From a virus (taxonomy: Duplodnaviria > Heunggongvirae > Uroviricota > Caudoviricetes): a DNA stretch of 11,553 nucleotides. Under the pieces are notes generated by a model. The model made no database searches. It saw nothing but the letters and a program-made list of their open reading frames with translations, and was not told the origin of the DNA. Positions 1,337-11,301 of the stretch are shown one piece after another (positions within the stretch are counted from its first letter, which is position 1; the number at the start of each line of letters is the position of its first letter). Location: IMG/VR virus record IMGVR_UViG_3300015179_000018, positions 1-11,553 of that record. One strand, given 5' to 3'. A program made the position numbers and the translations under genes.

Positions 1337-1563
1337 TGGCTGATGCAATGGATCTCGTACAGCAGCGCGTTGAAGAAGAACGCCAGCGCCATATTCGTGC
1401 TGCCCGTGCCAAAACACCGGGCGTGTCTCGCGTGCTTTGTATTGAATGTGAAGCGCCAATTCCGCCAGCACGACGCCGCGCCATTCCGGGAGTGCAGCTT
1501 TGCATTACCTGCCAGGAAATCGCAGAGCTGAAAGGCAAACATTACAACGGAGGTGCTGTATGA
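1336..1563 (+). CDS. TraR/DksA-family C4-type zinc-finger protein (phage-encoded)
   Basis: 75 aa with two CxxC pairs (CIEC...17 residues...CITC), typical of TraR/DksA zinc fingers found in P2-like early operons. Stop overlaps the next start (ATGA at 1560-1563). Confidence 0.75.
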
Positions 1564-1862
1564 CAAGGGCAGTGCGTATCCATCAATTAAAAATTGCACC
1601 TAAGTATTTCAACGCTGTGGTTGCAGGTCAAAAGACGGCTGAACTTCGTAAAGACGATCGTGGCTATAAAGTTGGTGATGTTCTTTCTCTTTGCGAATGG
1701 AAGCATGGCGTATTTACGGGTAGGGAATGGGCCGCTGTTATCTCTCATGTGCTTCCGGTTAATGACGTCATGGCAGTTTCAGAACAATGGGTGATGCTAT
1801 CAATTCGCCCATTAACTCCATTAGAAGCTTTAGGATATGTTATTGCAGGAGGTGCTGTATGA
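1560..1862 (+). CDS. DUF3850/ASCH-like (PUA-fold) domain protein
   Basis: ATG at 1560 preceded by GGAGG. N-terminus ([37 protein letters not shown]) matches my recollection of the DUF3850 pattern (HELKIWPEYFEAV..GKKTFEVRKNDRDY.VGD). Stop overlaps Dam start (ATGA at 1859-1862). The same ggaggtgctgtatga string precedes both this gene and dam. Confidence 0.7.
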
Positions 1863-2716
1863 GTACCATCCTGAAATGGGCGGGTAATAAAACTGCCATT
1901 ATGTCCGAACTGAAAAAACATCTTCCTGCTGGCCCGCGACTGGTTGAACCTTTCGCGGGTTCCTGTGCTGTGATGATGGAGACGGATTACCCCAGCTATC
2001 TTGTTGCGGATATTAATCCTGATTTAATCAACCTCTATAAAAAGGTTGCTGCTGATTGCGAGGCGTTTATATCTCGTGCCAGAGCTTTATTTGAGGAAGC
2101 AAACAGGGAGTTGGCTTATTACAACATAAGGCAGGAGTTTAATTACTCCACTGAAATTACTGATTTCATGAAAGCGGTATATTTCCTGTATCTCAATCGT
2201 CATGGTTACCGTGGGTTATGTCGTTATAACAAGAGCGGGCATTTCAACATTCCATACGGTAATTATAAAAATCCGTATTTCCCTGAAAAAGAAATTCGCG
2301 CATTTGCAGAGAAAGCCCAGCGAGCAACGTTTATCTGCGCCAGCTTTGATGAAACGCTGGCGATGCTGCAGGTGGGGGATGTGGTGTATTGCGATCCGCC
2401 TTATGACGGTACGTTTTCCGGCTATCACACTGACGGCTTCACTGAAGATGACCAGTATCACCTGGCATCTGTTCTTGAATATCGATCATCAGAAGGTCAT
2501 CCAGTCATTGTTTCTAACAGTGACACATCCCTGATCCGTTCGCTGTATCGAAATTTCACTCACCACTACATCAAGGCAAAACGCAGCATCGGCGTGTCGG
2601 CTGGCGAGAGTAAATCTGCAACAGAAATCATCGCTGTTTCTGGGGCGCGCTGCTGGGTGGGATTTGATCCTTCGCGTGGCGTGGATAGTTCTGCCGTGTA
2701 CGGAGTGCGTGCATGA
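1859..2716 (+). CDS. dam: DNA adenine methyltransferase, Dam/D12 class (N6-adenine, likely GATC-specific)
   Basis: ATG 1859 with GGAGG RBS (1847-1851); the ORF-track start at 1787 is upstream in the same frame. N-terminal KWAGNK and FAGSCAV (AdoMet-binding FxGxG) plus catalytic DPPY (VYCDPPYDG) are hallmark Dam-family motifs. Stop TGA 2714-2716 overlaps gpA ATG 2713. Confidence 0.9.
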
Positions 2717-5127
2717 GCCATGCTGATATGAACAACTGCAGCGGCTTTAACGAGGCCGCCGCAGCATTCTCATGGAACAGCCCGAAAAAGGCTATTAACC
2801 CTTATCTGGACCCGGCGGAAGTTGCGCCGGTTTCTGCGCTTTCAAACCTGATCACTCTGTACGCTGCCGATAACGAGCAGGAACAACTGCGCCGCGAGGC
2901 ACTGAGTGATCAGGTTTGGGAGCGTTATTTCTTTAATGAATCCCGTGATCCTGTCCAGCGCGAAATGGAGCAGGATAAGCTCATTAGCCGGGCAAAGTTG
3001 GCGCATGAGCAGCAGCGTTTTAACCCGGACATGGTCATTCTGGCAGACGTTAACGCCCAGCCTTCCCATATCAGCAGGCCGCTGATGCAACGTATTGAAT
3101 ACTTCAGCAGCCTTGGCAGGCCAAAGGCTTATTCCCGCTATTTGCGTGAGACGATTAAGCCATGTCTGGAACGGCTGGAGCATGTACGCGACAGTCAGCT
3201 ATCCACTTCTTTTCGCTTTATGGCAAGCCATGAAGGGCTGGACGGCCTGCTGATCCTGCCTGAAATGAGTCAGGATCAGGTGAAACGCCTGTCCACCCTT
3301 GTTGCTGCGCATATGAGCATGTGCCTTGATGCAGCTTGTGGCGATTTGTATGCCACCGATGACGTTAAGCCAGAAGAAATCCGCAAGACATGGGAAAAGG
3401 TGGCAGCAGAAACCCTGCGACTGGATGTCATACCGCCTGCGTTTGAGCAACTCCGCCGGAAAAGAAACCGCCGTAAACCCGTGCCCTATGAACTCATTCC
3501 GGGTTCGCTGGCGCGTATGTTGTGCGCCGATTGGTGGTACCGGAAATTATGGAAGATGCGTTGCGAATGGCGGGAAGAGCAGTTGCGTGCTGTTTGCCTG
3601 GTCAGCAAAAAAGCATCTCCCTATGTCAGCTATGAAGCCGTGATGCATAAACGTGAGCAGCGCCGTAAGTCGCTGGAGTTTTTCCGTTCTCATGAACTGG
3701 TGAACGAAGACGGCGACACGCTGGACATGGAGGATGTGGTAAACGCCAGCAGCAGCAACCCTGCGCATCGCCGCAATGAGATGATGGCCTGTGTTAAAGG
3801 TCTGGAGCTTATCGCGGAAATGCGCGGTGACTGCGCCGTTTTCTACACCATCACCTGTCCGTCACGTTTCCATTCCACGCTAAATAACGGCAGGCCCAAC
3901 CCGACCTGGACAAATACGACGGTAAGACAAAGCAGTGATTATCTGGTCGGCATGTTTGCTGCATTTCGTAAGGCGATGCACAAAGCCGGATTGCGCTGGT
4001 ATGGCGTGCGGGTGGCTGAGCCGCATCATGACGGTACAGTTCACTGGCACCTGTTGTGTTTTATGCGCAAAAAAGATCGCCGCACCATTACTGCTTTGTT
4101 GCGTAAGTTTGCCATTCGTGAAGACCGCGAGGAGCTGGGTAATAACACGGGACCACGCTTTAAGTCTGAGCTGATAAACCCGCGCAAAGGTACGCCAACA
4201 AGCTACATCGCGAAATACATCAGTAAGAACATTGACGGGCGTGGTCTGGCTGGCGAGATCAGCAAGGAAACGGGTAAATCCCTGCGTGATAACGCTGAAT
4301 ACGTTAATGCCTGGGCGTCTCTGCATCGTGTTCAGCAATTCCGCTTCTTTGGCATTCCGGGGCGTCAGGCTTACCGTGAACTGCGATTGCTGGCTGGTCA
4401 GGCGGCAAGGCAACAGGGGGACAAAAAAGCAGGTGCGCCGGTACTGGATAACCCGCGCCTTGATGCAATCCTGGCTGCTGCTGATGCTGGTTGTTTTGCC
4501 ACCTACATCATGAAGCAGGGCGGCGTACTGGTTCCCCGCAAATATCACCTCATCAGAACTGCTTATGAAATCAACGAAGAACCGACCGCATATGGCGATC
4601 ACGGTATTCGTATTTATGGCATCTGGTCACCCATTGCAGAGGGCAAGATCTGCACTCATGCGGTGAAGTGGAAAATGGTTCGTAAGGCCGTTGACGTTCA
4701 GGAGGCGGCAGCTGACCAGGGCGCTTGCGCCCCTTGGACTCGTGGCAATAACTGTCCCCTTGCTGAAAATTTGAACCAACAAGGGAAAGACAAATCAGCT
4801 GATGGGGACTCCAGAACGGATATTACCCGTATGAATGACAAGGAGTTGCACGATTACCTGCACAGTATGAGCAAAAAAGAGCGCCGGGAACTGGCTGCAA
4901 GGTTACGCCAGGTGAAACCGAAACGGCGTAAAGACTACAAACAGCGAATTACAGACCATCAGCGACAGCAGCTCGTCTATGAACTGAGGTCCAGAGGATT
5001 TGATGGCAGCGAGAAAGAGGTCGATTTACTCCTTCGCGGCGGCAGTATTCCGTCAGGAGCAGGCCTGCGTATCTTCTATCGGAGCCAGCGTTTGCAGGAA
5101 GATGACAAGTGGCGGAACCTGTATTAA
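2713..5127 (+). CDS. A: Rolling-circle replication initiation endonuclease, P2 gpA family
   Basis: 804 aa. HUH motif ([10 protein letters not shown]) and paired active-site tyrosine motif (YIAKYISKN) typical of P2 gpA-type Rep proteins. Follows dam in a coupled operon, as in P2-like phages. Confidence 0.9.
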
Positions 5128-5479: not shown

Positions 5480-5713
5480 ATGCGCATTGAAATAATGATC
5501 GATAAAGAGCAGAAGATTAGCCAGTCTACACTGGACGCCCTTGAATCCGAGCTTTACCGCAATCTGCGCCCCCTGTATCCCAAAACGGTAATTCGTATCC
5601 GCAAAGGTAGCTCTAATGGTGTGGAACTGACCGGACTGCAACTGGACGAAGAAAGAAAACAAGTGATGAAAATTATGCAGAAGGTGTGGGAAGACGACAG
5701 CTGGCTGCATTAA
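5480..5713 (+). CDS. DinI-like protein (SOS/RecA modulator family; Tum C-terminal-like)
   Basis: 77 aa starting MRIEIMIDKEQKIS...LDALESEL...VWEDDSWLH; closely parallels E. coli DinI (MRIEVTIAKTSPLP...IDALAGEL...TWESADDWF) from memory. RBS GAGGTGA 6 nt upstream. Start is an internal ATG of ORF-track ORF 5408-5713. Confidence 0.85.
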   Translation: MRIEIMIDKEQKISQSTLDALESELYRNLRPLYPKTVIRIRKGSSNGVELTGLQLDEERKQVMKIMQKVWEDDSWLH

Positions 5714-5872
5714 GAAACGTTGCTGGCGTCTGAACTTGCTTCTGGCGTCAGCAAGGTTGAACAACGAGTACAGTGAGGCGTTAGGTGTGGCGTTTATTTG
5801 ATGAGTGAACGCCCGTTCTGCGACAGGTTCGGAGATTAAGGTTGAAACTACGGGAAAAATACCATCTTTTTC

Positions 5873-6298
5873 CTACTTAATTGAGTCCAGTAACAAGTTA
5901 CAGTTACTCTCATTGTAGAGAGAACGAGCAATTAGTGTTACCTGCTTTCCATTCATTCCCGGCTTATCCCATAACACAGCTTCTTGCGACGCCACAAATT
6001 CAGCATAATCAATTATGCGTTGTTCGTGATCTGGTTCCTCATAGCCAAAGTATGAGAGCGCATCGTTGTAAGCGTGGTAAGCTGCTTTCTGTAATATCTT
6101 GATATCGGCTGTAGGTACTTGCTCCGTGTAGCTAGGATCTAATTGTGTGCTACTGCCATAGAATGCACATGAAAGGTAAGATATTGATTTCTGTTGAGCT
6201 TTAGTTCCTTTCTCATAGTTTTTAGCTGTTACCGCCTGAACTGGGACGCTAACAAAGCTTGCAACCAGAATTAAAATTAATACGTAAAAGCTTTTCAT
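5873..6298 (-). CDS. Secreted/periplasmic protein of unknown function with N-terminal Sec signal peptide (141 aa)
   Basis: N-terminus MKSFYVLILILVASFVSVPVQA-VTAK: positively charged n-region, hydrophobic core, AxA-like cleavage site (VQA), no lipobox Cys. RBS GAGG upstream on the minus strand. Gene is visibly AT-richer than flanking phage genes. Confidence 0.7.
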   Translation of the reverse strand: MKSFYVLILILVASFVSVPVQAVTAKNYEKGTKAQQKSISYLSCAFYGSSTQLDPSYTEQVPTADIKILQKAAYHAYNDALSYFGYEEPDHEQRIIDYAEFVASQEAVLWDKPGMNGKQVTLIARSLYNESNCNLLLDSIK

Positions 6299-6571
6299 TT
6301 TGACCTCAGCCGAAACGTTAGAGAGACTATCGAAATTTGTAAAACCCGTGGCGATTCAGTTTGAGATCCTCCCCCTTACATGATTTTTAATCAAATATAT
6401 GCTTTTGTAAGCATACCTGTTAACCGAATTATTTATTTTTAGAGATCTTCCGACATACTGATTATGCCCGCTGAGGAGTTCACCTTGCGTAAAGTCCGAT
6501 TCGCTTTACTCGTCTGTGCATGTCTATACTGCATGAGATTGCATGATCGTTTGAGGATCGTTTTTGCTAAG

Positions 6572-6596
6572 GCCCGCCAGTTCTGGCGGGCTTTTG
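6572..6596 (+). terminator. GC-rich hairpin followed by T-run (intrinsic-terminator-like), + strand
   Basis: gcccgcca-gttc-tggcgggc perfect 8-bp stem followed by ttttg. No obvious upstream + strand gene; may terminate an uncharacterised transcript or be part of the cos/packaging region. Confidence 0.45.
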
Positions 6597-6640
6597 CGTA
6601 GATCATGCACCTGCATGAAAACCACTACATAAAGCGGGCA

Positions 6641-6659
6641 GGCGTGGCGGGGATACGAG
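6641..6659. other. Candidate cos (cohesive end) site of the P2/186 type
   Basis: GGCGTGGCGGGGATACGAG at 6641-6659 closely resembles the 19-nt cohesive ends I recall for P2 (GGCGAGGCGGGGAAAGCAC) and 186 (GGCGTGGCGGGGAAAGCAT). It forms a GC-rich island in an AT-rich intergenic region between the replication side and the portal/terminase side. Confidence 0.45.
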
Positions 6660-6811
6660 CGCGCGCTAAGTCATATAAGAGTTATATATTGATTTGATTG
6701 CTGGACATGCATACAGTATCGCTCTATCATCTAATAAATCTTAGAGTATTTGACAATGTTTGGATAAAATGGAACCTAACTTATTCATAATCCGCTAAAC
6801 AGGGATGTCAG

Positions 6812-7726
6812 ATGCCATACCAATTGGTAGAGCTTAGCCCCGTAGCTAACGATCTTGAACAGTTAGGAACCAAAGAGAAGTTTTGGTTCTATTTCTCCGA
6901 TGACACTGTAAATTTGCAGTTGTTTAAGTACTCTAGGCCAGGTACTGGCGAGCATTGGTCTGAAAAGTGTGCTGCTGAGTTATGTCATTTGCTTAACATT
7001 CCACATGCTAGCTATGATTTGGCGCGATACAATGGTCGATTCGGTGTGGTGACTCAGAATATCATTCCATCTGGTTTCCGGATGGTAATGGGAAATGAAG
7101 TGCTTCACAGTTCGACATTCGATTATCCTGGGCCTTTACAAGCCGGGGAAAAGCCGGTAAGGGTCAGAGAACACACTGTCACAAGGGTATTGGGTTGTTT
7201 GGATAGGGAATCTATCAAGCCTCCTCCGAGTGTATATGATCTAACCGGGCTAAATGCAGCAGATGTATTTTGTGGATATTTGATGCTCGATGCACTTGTG
7301 AGTAATCAAGATCGCCATCATGAAAATTGGGCGATCATGCTTAACAATGAAACTGGTGAGCAGTTTTTGTGTCCAACATACGATCATGCCGCTAGTTTAG
7401 GAAGGGAGATGTTAGATGATGAGCGTAACGAACGGCTTAATACTAAAGATAAAAATCGACAAATCCCATGTTTTGTAAGAAAAGCTCGCTCTGAGCTATT
7501 CAAAGCAAAAACTGATAAAAAGCCCTTGCTGACCGTTGAAGCATTTCAACATGCAGTTGAAGGGAGAGTTGCCGCTCGCGACCATTGGTTAGGTAAGTTG
7601 AGCGTTTTAACAGAAGATTCCATTACAGATGTGTTTAACCAAGTGCCTTCATCGTGTATATCCGACAGTGCACGTAGATTTGCAACGTTAATGGTAATGG
7701 AAAATCGCAGAAGGTTACTAGAATGA
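6812..7726 (+). CDS. HipA-family-like Ser/Thr protein kinase core (HipT-like, lacking HipA N-terminal subdomain); candidate toxin/defence effector
   Basis: 304 aa. Gly-rich loop LGTKEKF (res 18-24) resembles the HipA P-loop (VAGAQEKT). Catalytic-loop-like SNQDRHHENW (res 164-173, nt 7301-7330) fits the N-x-D-x-H-x-x-N pattern of HipA/CtkA kinases, with downstream YDHAAS as a putative metal-binding Asp. RBS AGGGA before ATG 6812. Stop TGA overlaps the next ATG (ATGA at 7723-7726). Confidence 0.6.
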   Translation: MPYQLVELSPVANDLEQLGTKEKFWFYFSDDTVNLQLFKYSRPGTGEHWSEKCAAELCHLLNIPHASYDLARYNGRFGVVTQNIIPSGFRMVMGNEVLHSSTFDYPGPLQAGEKPVRVREHTVTRVLGCLDRESIKPPPSVYDLTGLNAADVFCGYLMLDALVSNQDRHHENWAIMLNNETGEQFLCPTYDHAASLGREMLDDERNERLNTKDKNRQIPCFVRKARSELFKAKTDKKPLLTVEAFQHAVEGRVAARDHWLGKLSVLTEDSITDVFNQVPSSCISDSARRFATLMVMENRRRLLE

Positions 7727-8463
7727 CTAATACAAACTCCGTTTACGTCGCATGGCAGGCACCAGATACCAGAGACTGGCATGTTGTTGGTAACTTGCAA
7801 GAGCGCAAATCGGGGTATGTTTTCAGGTATACCAAAGGTGCTCTTAAATCTACTAAATTTACAAAGTTTAGCGGCATGAGTGATGTTCGTGAAACTTATG
7901 TTTCGGAAGAATTGTTTCCTCTTTTTAAAAATCGCCTTTTATCACCGAGACGTCCAGAGTATCCGAGTTTCATTAAATGGCTTGGATTTGAAGAAGATAA
8001 GGTAAATCCTATCGATATTCTTGCTCGCTCGGGAGGCTTACGAAGCACTGATCAGCTGCAGATTTTCAAAAAAATTGATGTTGATTCTGATGGTAACTTT
8101 GAGCATTTTTTCTTCTTACATGGACTTGGTTACTTAAATAGCTTAGCTAATGCTCGTGTATCTGAATTGAAACCGGGGCAAATTTTGCGTCTTTGCTTGG
8201 ATCTTCAAAATGAATACGATGGGGATGCTGTTGTCGTTCGTGCAGATAAACCAGCTGAAATCGTTGGTTACTGCCCCAGGTATTTAAGTAATGATATCAA
8301 GAAGATGTTATTGGATGATCCAAAATCAATCACTTTAACGGTCGAAAAGATTAGCGATGATGCTCCTCATAACTATCGGTTATTATGTAAATTATCAGGA
8401 GTACTAAGCCAAGCCTGTCAATCGACGCTGATTCCTCAGGATGAGTTTGAACCTATTGAGTAA
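7723..8463 (+). CDS. Kinase-partner protein: N-terminal HipA-N/HipS-like region plus C-terminal HIRAN-like domain (tentative)
   Basis: 246 aa, translationally coupled to the kinase gene. C-terminal segment GLGY...LRLCLDLQNEYDGDAVVVRADKPAEIVGYCPRYLSNDIKKMLLD parallels the HIRAN signature (VGLRYY...LQRDPNNPYDKNAIKV...VGHLKKELAGALAYIMD). The N-terminal 110 aa (VYVAW..VVGNL..YVFRY..LFPLFKNRLLSPRR..ILARSGG) loosely resembles the HipA N-terminal subdomain. Both by eye only. Confidence 0.6.
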   Translation: MTNTNSVYVAWQAPDTRDWHVVGNLQERKSGYVFRYTKGALKSTKFTKFSGMSDVRETYVSEELFPLFKNRLLSPRRPEYPSFIKWLGFEEDKVNPIDILARSGGLRSTDQLQIFKKIDVDSDGNFEHFFFLHGLGYLNSLANARVSELKPGQILRLCLDLQNEYDGDAVVVRADKPAEIVGYCPRYLSNDIKKMLLDDPKSITLTVEKISDDAPHNYRLLCKLSGVLSQACQSTLIPQDEFEPIE

Positions 8464-8471
8464 ATGAAGAA

Positions 8472-8497
8472 AAGCCACCAAACGGTGGCTTTTCTTA
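8472..8497. terminator. Bidirectional intrinsic terminator between the convergent cargo operon and portal gene Q
   Basis: aagccacc-aaac-ggtggctt hairpin (8472-8491) with T-rich tract on the + strand (tttctt) and, on the reverse complement, ttttctt after the same stem. Lies exactly between the stop at 8463 (+) and the stop at 8498 (-). Confidence 0.6.
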
Positions 8498-9535
8498 TTA
8501 TGGGACTATATCTAGCGAGTAGGTATTAAACTGTATCGCCTCCTTGCCAAGCCAATCATTCATCTCCTGTAATCGCTTTTGTAGTGGCATTAGTTCATTT
8601 CGCACAAAAACTCGACTCGCCTTCTCTACATCCCCAAACCCACCGACATTATTAGGCATAATCCCCATCATCTGAGGCGGTACGCGGTGTGCAGCCATCA
8701 TGTCGTCCCGGCTCACGTTCTTGATGTTCAGAAATTCATCTTTCGCTGCGACTTCTGACAACGGGATGATCTGAAGCCCGTCCTTTTTGCCGTTAGGCGA
8801 GTACATAAACAGGTTGCGGAAGTTGCCAGGGCCTTTGGCGCTTTTCATCGCGTTGCGGAGGTTGTTCACATCTTCCTGGTTCTGCGCGGCGTCGGTCATA
8901 TACATGATGAAGCCTGCATGACTGCCGTTAATGTAATACTTGCGGCGGAACAGCGTGGCAGACTCGTTGAGCAGGGCGGATGGAATAGCAGAAAGATAAC
9001 CGGGCAGGCCGTAGATCTCCTGGTTGATGTCCGGTTCCATCAGATGAAAGATGCTGCCTTTCGTGAACTGATATGGCTGCGTGGTCATACCGTATTGCAC
9101 AAACCAGTAGGTATCCAGGTCTAACCCGCGTCGGGTGTATTTTGCCAAGGCAGGTTCAAGGGCGATAACTTCACCGAAGCGGTTCGTGCGTTTCTCCAGG
9201 TAGGCGTTACCAAATACCAGATAGTCCTGCACAAAACGCGAAAAAGCCTGCTGGCTGAGCAGCGGGTGAGGGATGTAGGTGCTGGTCAGAATGTTGCACT
9301 TTACTGCAATCGGGGAACTATGATGAACGGCAGCGCGGAAGGTGCGCGCCAGTCCGTCAAAGCTGACGGGCGGCTCATACCAGCGGTCCATCTGTACGCA
9401 TTCCACATAATCCAGCAGTTCTCGGCGGTCCAGAACAGGAACGGGATCGCCGAAGCTGAATGCTTCGGCTGTAGTTTGACTTTTAAGCTGGATCTGTTTC
9501 GTCGCCGCAGCGCGGTTCTTCTTACTCTTTCCCAT
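8498..9535 (-). CDS. Q: Portal protein (P2 gpQ family)
   Basis: About 345 aa, minus strand, immediately downstream of and overlapping (TGATG) the terminase ATPase gene, the conserved P2 P-Q arrangement. ATG at 9533-9535 with GGAG RBS; the ORF-track start at 9538 is a TTG one codon upstream. Confidence 0.88.
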   Translation of the reverse strand: MGKSKKNRAAATKQIQLKSQTTAEAFSFGDPVPVLDRRELLDYVECVQMDRWYEPPVSFDGLARTFRAAVHHSSPIAVKCNILTSTYIPHPLLSQQAFSRFVQDYLVFGNAYLEKRTNRFGEVIALEPALAKYTRRGLDLDTYWFVQYGMTTQPYQFTKGSIFHLMEPDINQEIYGLPGYLSAIPSALLNESATLFRRKYYINGSHAGFIMYMTDAAQNQEDVNNLRNAMKSAKGPGNFRNLFMYSPNGKKDGLQIIPLSEVAAKDEFLNIKNVSRDDMMAAHRVPPQMMGIMPNNVGGFGDVEKASRVFVRNELMPLQKRLQEMNDWLGKEAIQFNTYSLDIVP

Positions 9536-11301
9536 CAAAAAATCTCCACAATATTGCTGGTATTGGCGGATTCGCCCTGCAGCGGTTCGTTAAACAGTGC
9601 GTGCATCGTTGCCCAGGCCAGATCGGCGTGGCTGGCTTCTTCGCTGCGGCTGGCTTCATAGGTCGGGCGGTTGCCACTGGCGGTGGTGGCGCGACGGATT
9701 GCCATAAAGGACTGCGCTATGTCGGTGTGTCCGGCGTCAAACTCCAGACGGCGGTGGCTGATAATGTCGTAGGCCTTGAGTACCAGGGCGTTTTTAACGT
9801 TGGGGTTGTAGACAAACTCCCGGACGGCAGGAAAAAACGCTTTCACGTTCTCGTAAACCCCGTGACCAACGCCGGTTGAGTCGATACCGATATAGGTCAC
9901 GTTGTACTGTTCGGTCAGTTTTTTGATGGCGTCAGCCTGGGCGCGGAAGTCCATTCCGCGCCACTGGTGACGCTCAAGAATGCGGAACTTACCGCCCGGC
10001 ACGGCTGGCGGCGCCACCACCACGCATCCGGCGCTGTCGCCGTTCTGCGTACCTTTCGCCGGGTCATATCCGATCCACACTTCGCGCCAGCCAAACGGGC
10101 GCAGGGCCAGTGCATGAAAGTCGGTCCAGACTTCCCAACTGTCCACCATGCACGCCTGCAGCTCGCTGAGTGGGAACACAGACGCGAGATCGTCCACGAA
10201 CTCACACATCAGCAGGTTTTGGTATTCGTCCGGGCTGTACTCCATGCGCAACTGGTCGAGGTCGAACAGGTTACAGCCGCCGCGCACCGCATCTTCCACA
10301 GTGACTATCTGGCGGTACTGCCCGTCTGCGCACAGCAGGCCGGGGGCCAGATTGCTGTGGGACAGGTCGATGTCCACCTTATCGGCTTTGTTGCGCCCTC
10401 GGTTGAACAGCGCACCGGACCAGAACGGATAAGCACTGTGTGTCAGGCTGGATGGCGTGGAAAAATAGGTTTGTCGCCATTTTTTGTGAATAGCCATACC
10501 GGAAGCCACTTTGCGCAGCTCCTGGAATTTCGGTATCCAGAAATATTCATCCAGATACAGGTTGCCGTGGTAACTCTGGGCCGTGCGGGCATTGGTGCCG
10601 AGGAAGTACAGCGTGGCCCCGTTAGGAAGCACCATCGGATCGCCTTTCAGCTCCACCTCCACTTCTTTGGCGAAGTCGATGATGTACTGCTTAAAGACGT
10701 GGGCCTGAGCCTTGCTGGCGGAAAGGAAAATCTGGTTACGCCCGGTTAGCAGGGCGTCAATCAGGGCTTCACGGGCAAAATAGAAGGTCGCGCCGATCTG
10801 GCGTGACTTCAGCAGGTTGCGGATGCGGTTGGTTTTTCCGGCTTCCCACCAGTGGCGCTGGTAGTTGAACATGGAGGAATGGAAGATTTCTTCCAACTTC
10901 TCAATCTGTTCATCGGTGAAAACGTTCTTTTCCGGCTGACGGCGCGGGCCTTTGTTGCGGTTGGCGACGTTAGGGTTTAAGTCGGCTTCGTTGCCGCCAT
11001 TGTTAAACTTGCCGATCCGCGCATGGCGCTCCGACTGGCGCGCCAGCAGGTCAATCTCTTTGAAATCTTTCCCTTCTTTGTGCTCCTTCATAATGAGCTG
11101 GCAGTAGCGTGCGGCGGTGGTGAGCTGCATCTGATCCAGCGGCCCATAGTCACCCCACTTGTCGCGTTTTTTCCAGCTGTGAACGGTTGCAACTTTCTCG
11201 CCCAGCATTTCAGCAATGCGAGCTACGCGGTATCCCTGAAAGTACAGCAGCATGGCCTGCCGACGGGGATCGAGATCTGCGGGTGTCAGTGTGGTGTTCA
11301 T
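9535..11301 (-). CDS. P: Terminase large (ATPase) subunit, P2 gpP family
   Basis: 588 aa, minus strand, divergent from the O start. N-terminal HTH-like segment (LLYFQGYRVARIAEMLGEKVATVHSWKKR) typical of terminase DNA-binding N-termini; size and position match P2 gpP. The true start could be the internal ATG at 11251-11253 (M17). Confidence 0.88.
   Translation of the reverse strand: MNTTLTPADLDPRRQAMLLYFQGYRVARIAEMLGEKVATVHSWKKRDKWGDYGPLDQMQLTTAARYCQLIMKEHKEGKDFKEIDLLARQSERHARIGKFNNGGNEADLNPNVANRNKGPRRQPEKNVFTDEQIEKLEEIFHSSMFNYQRHWWEAGKTNRIRNLLKSRQIGATFYFAREALIDALLTGRNQIFLSASKAQAHVFKQYIIDFAKEVEVELKGDPMVLPNGATLYFLGTNARTAQSYHGNLYLDEYFWIPKFQELRKVASGMAIHKKWRQTYFSTPSSLTHSAYPFWSGALFNRGRNKADKVDIDLSHSNLAPGLLCADGQYRQIVTVEDAVRGGCNLFDLDQLRMEYSPDEYQNLLMCEFVDDLASVFPLSELQACMVDSWEVWTDFHALALRPFGWREVWIGYDPAKGTQNGDSAGCVVVAPPAVPGGKFRILERHQWRGMDFRAQADAIKKLTEQYNVTYIGIDSTGVGHGVYENVKAFFPAVREFVYNPNVKNALVLKAYDIISHRRLEFDAGHTDIAQSFMAIRRATTASGNRPTYEASRSEEASHADLAWATMHALFNEPLQGESANTSNIVEIF

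Follow-up and report, generated by a model that had tools for sequence, protein, structure and literature searches.

A predicted periplasmic protein encoded in the cos-proximal cargo slot of a P2-like Escherichia coli prophage as a candidate lysogenic-conversion factor

A 141-aa protein encoded on the minus strand (positions 5873-6298) of an 11,553-nucleotide stretch of caudoviral DNA, IMG/VR record IMGVR_UViG_3300015179_000018, is the subject of this report. To keep the terms simple, the whole stretch is called the window throughout, and the gene and its product are called the target gene and the target protein. The target gene lies on an inserted cargo module (a moron), is conserved by selection, and specifies a product that is predicted to be exported to the periplasm. 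We tentatively propose that, as a moron of the cos-proximal hotspot of a P2-like prophage, it brings about lysogenic conversion, and that its product may exclude incoming phages at the injection stage; this is the reading that we put first, and we hold it with somewhat less than even confidence. The gene itself has been catalogued before, as hypothetical in RefSeq and in Table S5A of Rousset et al. (2022; PMC9122126) and within a function-unknown family in PHROGs.

The open reading frame (ORF) runs from ATG to TAG, and the same coding sequence, identical by tblastn, is annotated by RefSeq in E. coli LR-71-1 as hypothetical protein WP_000834899.1. The ratio of nonsynonymous to synonymous substitution rates (dN/dS) is 0.14 against an orthologue with 91% protein identity and 0.27 against one with 77%; the target gene is under purifying selection. 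Given these values and the invariant residues that are kept in distant homologues (see below), the ORF is regarded as real, beyond what chance would produce. Its G+C content is 40.4%, and 38.7% at third codon positions (GC3), compared with 53% and 57% in the replication endonuclease gene gpA, 52% and 63% in the portal gene Q, and 57% and 71% in the terminase gene P. The low G+C content is not peculiar to the target gene, since the HipA-like and HIRAN cargo genes on its right are equally AT-rich.

The insertion was delimited by blastn against a sibling, Escherichia phage vB_EcoM-813R9 (L041), in which homology with the window is continuous until position 5784 and starts again from 6516, with about 7 bp in between. 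Positions 5785-6515 are thus a discrete 731-bp insertion, made up of the target gene with 88 bp downstream and 217 bp upstream of it. Fels-2 (L042) holds a different gene, STM2726, in place of this segment. The moron status of the target gene is supported by this insertion relative to the sibling phage together with the foreign base composition, and the cassette is regarded as horizontally mobile. Both borders of the slot lie outside the moron. The left border is a DinI-family gene (about 5480-5713, plus strand; PF06183, E=1.3e-22, in agreement with the RefSeq annotation), with which the rightward early operon ends. The right border is the cos site, mapped by local alignment of the window to the circularised cos junction of P2: the 19-nt cohesive-end sequence GGCGTGGCGGGGATACGAG at 6641-6659 (plus strand) shares 14 of its 19 bases with the P2 cohesive end and has conserved flanks. 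In the block that surrounds it (6516-6674), identity among P2-like phages from Escherichia, Klebsiella and Salmonella amounts to 93-95%. Two further listed ORFs, 6439-6606 and 6464-6601, lie mostly inside this conserved block and are unlikely to be genes.

These results agree with most of what the original prediction, made from the letters of the window alone, had claimed, namely a minus-strand ORF of 141 codons at this place, a G+C content below that of the phage surroundings, a location between an SOS module and a cos-like site, and the character of a moron. The further claim that the gene is opposite in orientation to all neighbouring phage genes held only in part: the immediate neighbours gpA, a 62-aa ORF (orf62), DinI, HipA-like and HIRAN are all on the plus strand, but portal Q and terminase P, further right, share the minus strand with the target gene.

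The equivalent interval of P2 is filled by tin and old (P2p42 and P2p43), both on the minus strand, with mRNA starts that adjoin cosR. The target gene is therefore placed in the classical lysogenic-conversion slot and in the classical orientation. It shares with tin and old the position between cos and the point where the rightward early operon ends, the leftward direction and, as far as the candidate described below is concerned, a cos-adjacent promoter. It also shares with them the character of non-essential cargo that varies between P2-like phages, and the gpA-gpQ interval has been shown to be a hotspot rich in anti-phage cargo (Rousset et al., 2022). In Table S5A of that work WP_000834899 stands beside differing partners in P2-hotspot arrangements. 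A comparison within IMG/VR, covering 30 loci that hold the target gene at 91-100% identity, gave a similar picture. DinI is present as well in 29 of these loci, and its distance from the target gene is 166 bp in 28 of them and 161 bp in the other (L004). The distance from the target gene to Q ranges from about 1 to 3.4 kb among the 30 loci, and the HipA/HIRAN pair of the window recurs in only one of them (L028). The interval between cos and Q is a second cargo slot, which varies independently of the target gene.

Export of the target protein is supported by its N-terminus and by those of its homologues. Codons 1-22 (6233-6298, minus strand) specify a predicted Sec-type signal peptide, MKSFYVLILILVASFVSVPVQA, which is followed by VT and has valine at -3 and alanine at -1 of the cleavage site expected after VQA (V-Q-A|V). 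It begins with MK, carrying one positive charge, and continues with a 16-residue hydrophobic region (h-region) whose 10-residue Kyte-Doolittle mean is 3.26. The lipobox pattern [LVI][ASTVI][GAS]C was not found in the N-terminus of the protein. Among 18 homologues with 24-90% identity, 17 keep the architecture of charged start, hydrophobic core and AXA-type site despite diverged signal-peptide sequences; the exception, P0014, appears to be N-terminally truncated. Because the architecture is conserved and the sequence is not, export via Sec and signal peptidase I to the periplasm is a well-supported prediction, and the earlier claim of a Sec signal peptide without a lipobox has thus stood. The long and very hydrophobic h-region might instead act as an uncleaved signal anchor, holding the protein at the inner membrane with its domain facing the periplasm. 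This is very improbable, considering that nearly all homologues keep small residues at -3 and -1 (AXA-like) at a distance of 17-22 residues from their N-terminus, and that a 71% identical variant from Enterobacter roggenkampii (P0005, 125 aa) has a signal peptide ending in the lipobox LIGLSAC, a replacement of the cleavage site which implies that the N-terminus is processed. P0005 may be a lipoprotein version of the protein; its C-terminus is divergent and truncated, and it may be frameshifted.

The mature protein would comprise 119 aa (13.4 kDa) and be acidic, with an isoelectric point of 5.1. An AlphaFold2 model built on a 10-sequence alignment reached a mean predicted local distance difference test score (pLDDT) of 85.8 and a predicted template modelling score (pTM) of 0.78. 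Most of the mature domain scores above 90, and only residues 1-19, which belong to the signal peptide, fall below 50. With helices at residues 25-53, 63-83, 91-110, 120-130 and 133-140, the mature domain is confidently predicted to be a compact helical bundle. Five residues are invariant in homologues down to 24% identity: C44 in helix 1, W110, Y128, N132, and C133 in the last helix. The mature part has exactly two invariant cysteines, and a C44-C133 disulfide linking the first and the last helices is likely from the sequence; an invariant pair of this kind would be expected if the disulfide forms in the periplasm, and it counts in favour of export. The best-conserved stretch, SQEAVLWDxPGMN, covers the end of helix 3 and the next loop, and the conserved surface motif as a whole reads SQEAVLWDxPGMN ... 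Y...NC.LLL. In the family alignment no conservation pattern pointed to a catalytic or metal site.

The protein is a full-length member of PHROG 7437, whose hidden Markov model matches residues 1-141 of 141 with E=4.3e-99; the plasmid clade of homologues matches the same model with E=2.7e-13. This PHROG is annotated as function unknown, and neither it nor the RefSeq entry WP_000834899.1 adds a mechanism. The family is small. An exhaustive HMMER profile search of 1.84 billion representative sequences yielded no more than 21 clusters at 50% identity. Those with a named source come without exception from Enterobacterales (Escherichia, Klebsiella, Enterobacter, Hafnia, Siccibacter, Scandinavium, Rahnella and Salmonella), and each is labelled hypothetical. 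A tblastn search of the INPHARED phages gave no match. Literature searches for WP_000834899.1 returned nothing, those on periplasmic exclusion morons brought up nothing on its family, and both the accession and the sequence are absent from the supplements of Vassallo et al.

The cassette was found in 101 of 5426 complete E. coli genomes (about 1.9%), and these are 101 of the 1278 that have this DinI/cos region. This distribution bears on the possibility that the protein serves the phage's own lytic cycle, either by modulating lysis in the periplasm through the endolysin, the spanin or timing, or in release. The protein is phage-encoded and predicted to be periplasmic, and in one prophage type a homologue is part of a row of genes, all on one strand, that stands upstream of HNH and terminase genes, all of which would suit such a role. 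Yet most P2-like phages do without the gene and lyse normally; its transcription runs counter to that of the early operon, and it is not located in the P2 lysis cassette; and none of the genes next to the homologue in L043 can be recognised as encoding a holin, an endolysin or a spanin. A lytic role is therefore considered very unlikely.

Every homologue context that was examined, including those of distant homologues at 24-40% identity, is an accessory slot of a temperate phage or a phage-plasmid. The association with prophage hotspots that had been expected of the homologues is thus confirmed, and the family does not appear as core housekeeping genes, since no chromosomal housekeeping copy was seen in these contexts. 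The settings are diverse. Homologues lie directly beside a phage integrase at the Klebsiella mqo-ecotin locus (L043, L046), next to an integrase in L049, and in a degraded island at the mqo-ecotin site of Siccibacter (L045). In L033, L034 and L050 they occupy a lambdoid early-left region between ExoX-like/AAA recombination genes and MT-A70 methylases, and in L031 the homologue is found two short ORFs downstream of a tail-spike gene. Others are carried by non-mobilizable IncFIB plasmids of about 105-115 kb, which IMG/VR also lists as viral, and by a contig with ParA/ParG and terminase genes (L002, L036, L048).

In several of these places the homologue belongs to a tight same-strand cluster with other small proteins that have a signal peptide, a lipobox or an N-terminal membrane helix, their genes overlapping at stop and start or nearly abutting. 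Such clusters were delimited in L043 (7267-9635; neighbours of 219, 116, 157 and 141 aa), L045 (7540-8917; 154 and 165 aa), L049 (1574-2355; 123 aa), L051 (6113-7179; 108 and 112 aa) and L048 (6295-7438; 93 and 107 aa), and they may be arrays of envelope-targeted accessory proteins. The 157-aa neighbour in L043 and the 154- and 165-aa neighbours in L045 have a layout like that of the target protein, with a signal peptide, a cysteine in the first helix and an 'NC' near the C-terminus; hhalign scores between these three and the target protein were weak and partly driven by the signal peptide, and homology is not established. The clustered neighbours have no Pfam, PHROG or PDB annotation, PDB sequence searches with four of them gave nothing useful, and PHROG and Pfam scans of the neighbours in L031, L034, L035 and L043 provided no functional lead to a partner of the target protein.

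The arrays are reminiscent of those formed by immunity genes, and they are among the reasons for considering that the target protein might confer periplasmic immunity to antibacterial proteins, for example a peptidoglycan hydrolase or lipase delivered by a type VI secretion system (T6SS), a bacteriocin of the colicin or pesticin type, or host lysozyme. The target gene would then be an 'orphan immunity' gene of the prophage, and the lysogen would gain a competitive advantage. A small, soluble, helical periplasmic protein with a likely disulfide and no catalytic signature suits this role. Also in its favour is an exported LprI-family lysozyme inhibitor encoded on the phage-plasmid L002 (1733-2431, minus strand), about 3 kb from a distant homologue, which shows that this accessory region carries other factors that protect in the periplasm. 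Lysozyme inhibitors and the immunity proteins of T6SS effectors and bacteriocins neutralise enzymes that act in the periplasm, and they are sometimes arrayed on mobile elements. In its predicted properties the target protein resembles Ivy, MliC/PliC, LprI/DUF1311, Tai4/Rap and Pim, which are small, Sec-exported, often disulfide-bonded and non-enzymatic binders, but it differs from them in that Pfam, NCBIfam and fold searches gave no match and no cognate toxin is encoded nearby. Pim, the pesticin immunity protein of pPCP1, has the same length and is also periplasmic; it is unrelated to the target protein (hhalign probability 0.3%). Taken together, immunity to antibacterial proteins is rated as unlikely, some way behind injection-stage exclusion.

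A broader interpretation is that the target protein founds a family not recognised before, whose phage-encoded members would serve in the periplasm as 'gatekeeper' or immunity proteins and would have a new helical fold stapled by a disulfide. The family would be spread over temperate phages and phage-plasmids of Enterobacterales and often be encoded in multi-gene arrays of diverse exported proteins. We consider this conceivable, though doubtful. If it were true, prophages would be equipped with defence arsenals at the envelope, a counterpart to the hotspots of cytoplasmic defence.

Based on the slot, the predicted export and the predicted fold, the following sequence of events is proposed for injection-stage exclusion. 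In the lysogen, the target gene would be read from a promoter of its own close to cos, the product would be exported by Sec, and its two cysteines would be oxidised to a disulfide in the periplasm. There the protein would act as a stoichiometric binder of a periplasm-exposed partner, which is probable because conserved residues of catalytic type are lacking. The likeliest partner would be a component of an incoming phage that is pushed through the envelope, such as a tail-tip muralytic protein or an ejection protein, and the outcome would be exclusion at the injection stage in the manner of T4 Spackle or P1 Sim. In a closely related alternative, the protein would neutralise an imported toxin that acts in the periplasm. 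T4 Spackle is a small helical binder of the tail lysozyme. Spackle (gp61.3) and Sim are, like the target protein, small and phage-encoded with a cleavable signal peptide, which is predicted in the target protein, and they act in the periplasm, as is proposed for it; a structural comparison with the solved structure of T4 Spackle found no similarity. Old and Tin are cytoplasmic and act on nucleic acid or replication. The target protein, unlike these two occupants of the P2 slot, is predicted to be exported.

A Shine-Dalgarno region (GAGG; 6302-6307, minus strand), whose last base is 5 nt before the ATG of the target gene, is conserved in L029, the orthologue with 91% identity. A candidate sigma-70 promoter, TTAACA-18 nt-TATATT, with 10 of 12 consensus matches, is situated at 6394-6423 on the minus strand, some 95 nt ahead of the ATG; it is analogous to the old-tin promoter of P2 next to cosR. 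L029 has the same -35 hexamer and, with TATGTT, a single change in the -10 hexamer. No alignment of the promoter region was obtained with L031, the orthologue with 77% identity, which comes from an unrelated phage context; beyond the ORF, its homology with the window extends for no more than about 35 nt on the upstream side and about 60 nt on the downstream side. Folding the 5' and 3' flanks as RNA gave structures that did not surpass those of shuffled sequences, and Rfam gave no match in 5700-6800. On the plus strand, a GC-rich hairpin (6566-6597) followed by a T-run lies within the conserved cos block and is probably the terminator of the rightward early operon, in which case lytic early transcription would run antisense through the moron.

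Several results weigh against injection-stage exclusion. The candidate promoter is a consensus match only, promoter-like sites being about as frequent in the sequence (4) as in shuffled sequence (2.6 +/- 1.8), and there is no intrinsic terminator downstream of the target gene (fold z-score 0.0). The target protein has no match in Pfam, even at E<=1, or in NCBIfam, and the same scans of the plasmid homologue gave nothing. PADLOC-DB v2 returned no family for either of the two proteins; for the target protein this marks a difference from P2 Old and Tin in so far as the library covers known defence systems, the search not being a direct alignment with Old or Tin. Foldseek with the AlphaFold2 model found nothing at E<=0.001 in the PDB and BFVD, a profile search of PDB sequences gave no match, and no likeness in sequence, profile or fold was seen to any characterised exclusion, immunity or inhibitor protein. 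The cargo of the hotspot, moreover, is not all anti-phage, and partition systems and a cytolethal distending toxin are recorded there as well (Rousset et al., 2022).

Such non-defence cargo in the P2 hotspot also speaks for another explanation, in which the target protein is a conversion factor for host fitness or virulence, such as a periplasmic chaperone or a stress or envelope-remodelling protein that aids survival in the gut or host, comparable to the prophage-encoded SodC and Bor or to HdeA-like proteins. The presence of the gene in about 1.9% of complete E. coli genomes, with carriers from humans, dogs, cattle, swine and poultry, is in keeping with it, and small acidic helical disulfide-bonded periplasmic proteins include stress chaperones. 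There was, however, no fold match to HdeA/B, Spy, CpxP or SodC, the family is limited to phage accessory slots with no chromosomal core copies, and no association with a pathotype was evident on an informal look. A fitness role is accordingly judged slightly less likely than immunity to antibacterial proteins, and clearly more plausible than a lytic one. Injection-stage exclusion is ranked first because of the tin/old slot and of a hotspot rich in anti-phage cargo; neutralisation of a toxin or lysozyme comes second and a fitness factor unrelated to defence third, and a part in the phage's own lysis is unlikely.

To our knowledge, studies of the P2/P4 cos-proximal hotspots have mostly mined cytoplasmic defence systems and have largely ignored small exported cargo. 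Should the family prove to bar phages from entering or to neutralise toxins in the periplasm, it would represent an envelope-level layer of prophage-encoded protection and a new small binder fold; if not, the target gene would be one more uncharacterised hotspot gene. With a gene this short and self-contained, which about 2% of complete E. coli genomes carry, the question is cheap to test.

As a whole, the window represents the right end of an E. coli prophage of the P2/186/Fels-2 type, together with its packaging region, and its positions 5700-6900 are 99.3% identical to the chromosome of E. coli LR-71-1. The replication endonuclease gene gpA (2713-5127, plus strand) is preceded on its left by genes in the order DUF5347, DUF2732, TraR/DksA, DUF3850/ASCH ORF and Dam, and orf62 (plus strand) is located between gpA and DinI. 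Portal Q (8498-9538) and terminase P (9535-11301) follow on the minus strand. The second cargo slot, between cos and Q, is filled by two plus-strand genes with overlapping stop and start (together 6812-8463), which encode a HipA_C-like kinase of 304 aa (6812-7726) and a HIRAN protein of 246 aa (7723-8463). The pair matches the PADLOC candidate system PDC-M03, with E=2e-122 for component A and E=3e-93 for component B. In Table S5B of Rousset et al. (2022) the pair is listed as system #20, 'HipA_C | HipA_C/HIRAN', with 150 occurrences, and the supplement of that work also contains a 'HIRAN-kinase' system from Vibrio.

Two minor observations concern other parts of the window. The DUF3850/ASCH ORF (about 1560-1862, plus strand), in the interval between TraR/DksA and Dam, is missing from the otherwise near-identical LR-71-1 prophage (L001), where TraR abuts Dam and the interval is about 299 bp shorter than in the window; L013 shows extra spacing like that of the window, and the DUF3850 gene of P2 (orf91) is placed after gpA instead. 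This ORF is a small variable gene of the indel type. Further right, a weak Rfam match to the Brucella small RNA BSnc120 was noted at 8449-8527 on the minus strand (32 bits, E=2e-4; gathering score 114). The matching stretch covers the stop codons of the HIRAN and portal genes and is probably just the terminator hairpin of the P/Q operon, the counterpart of tQ in P2.
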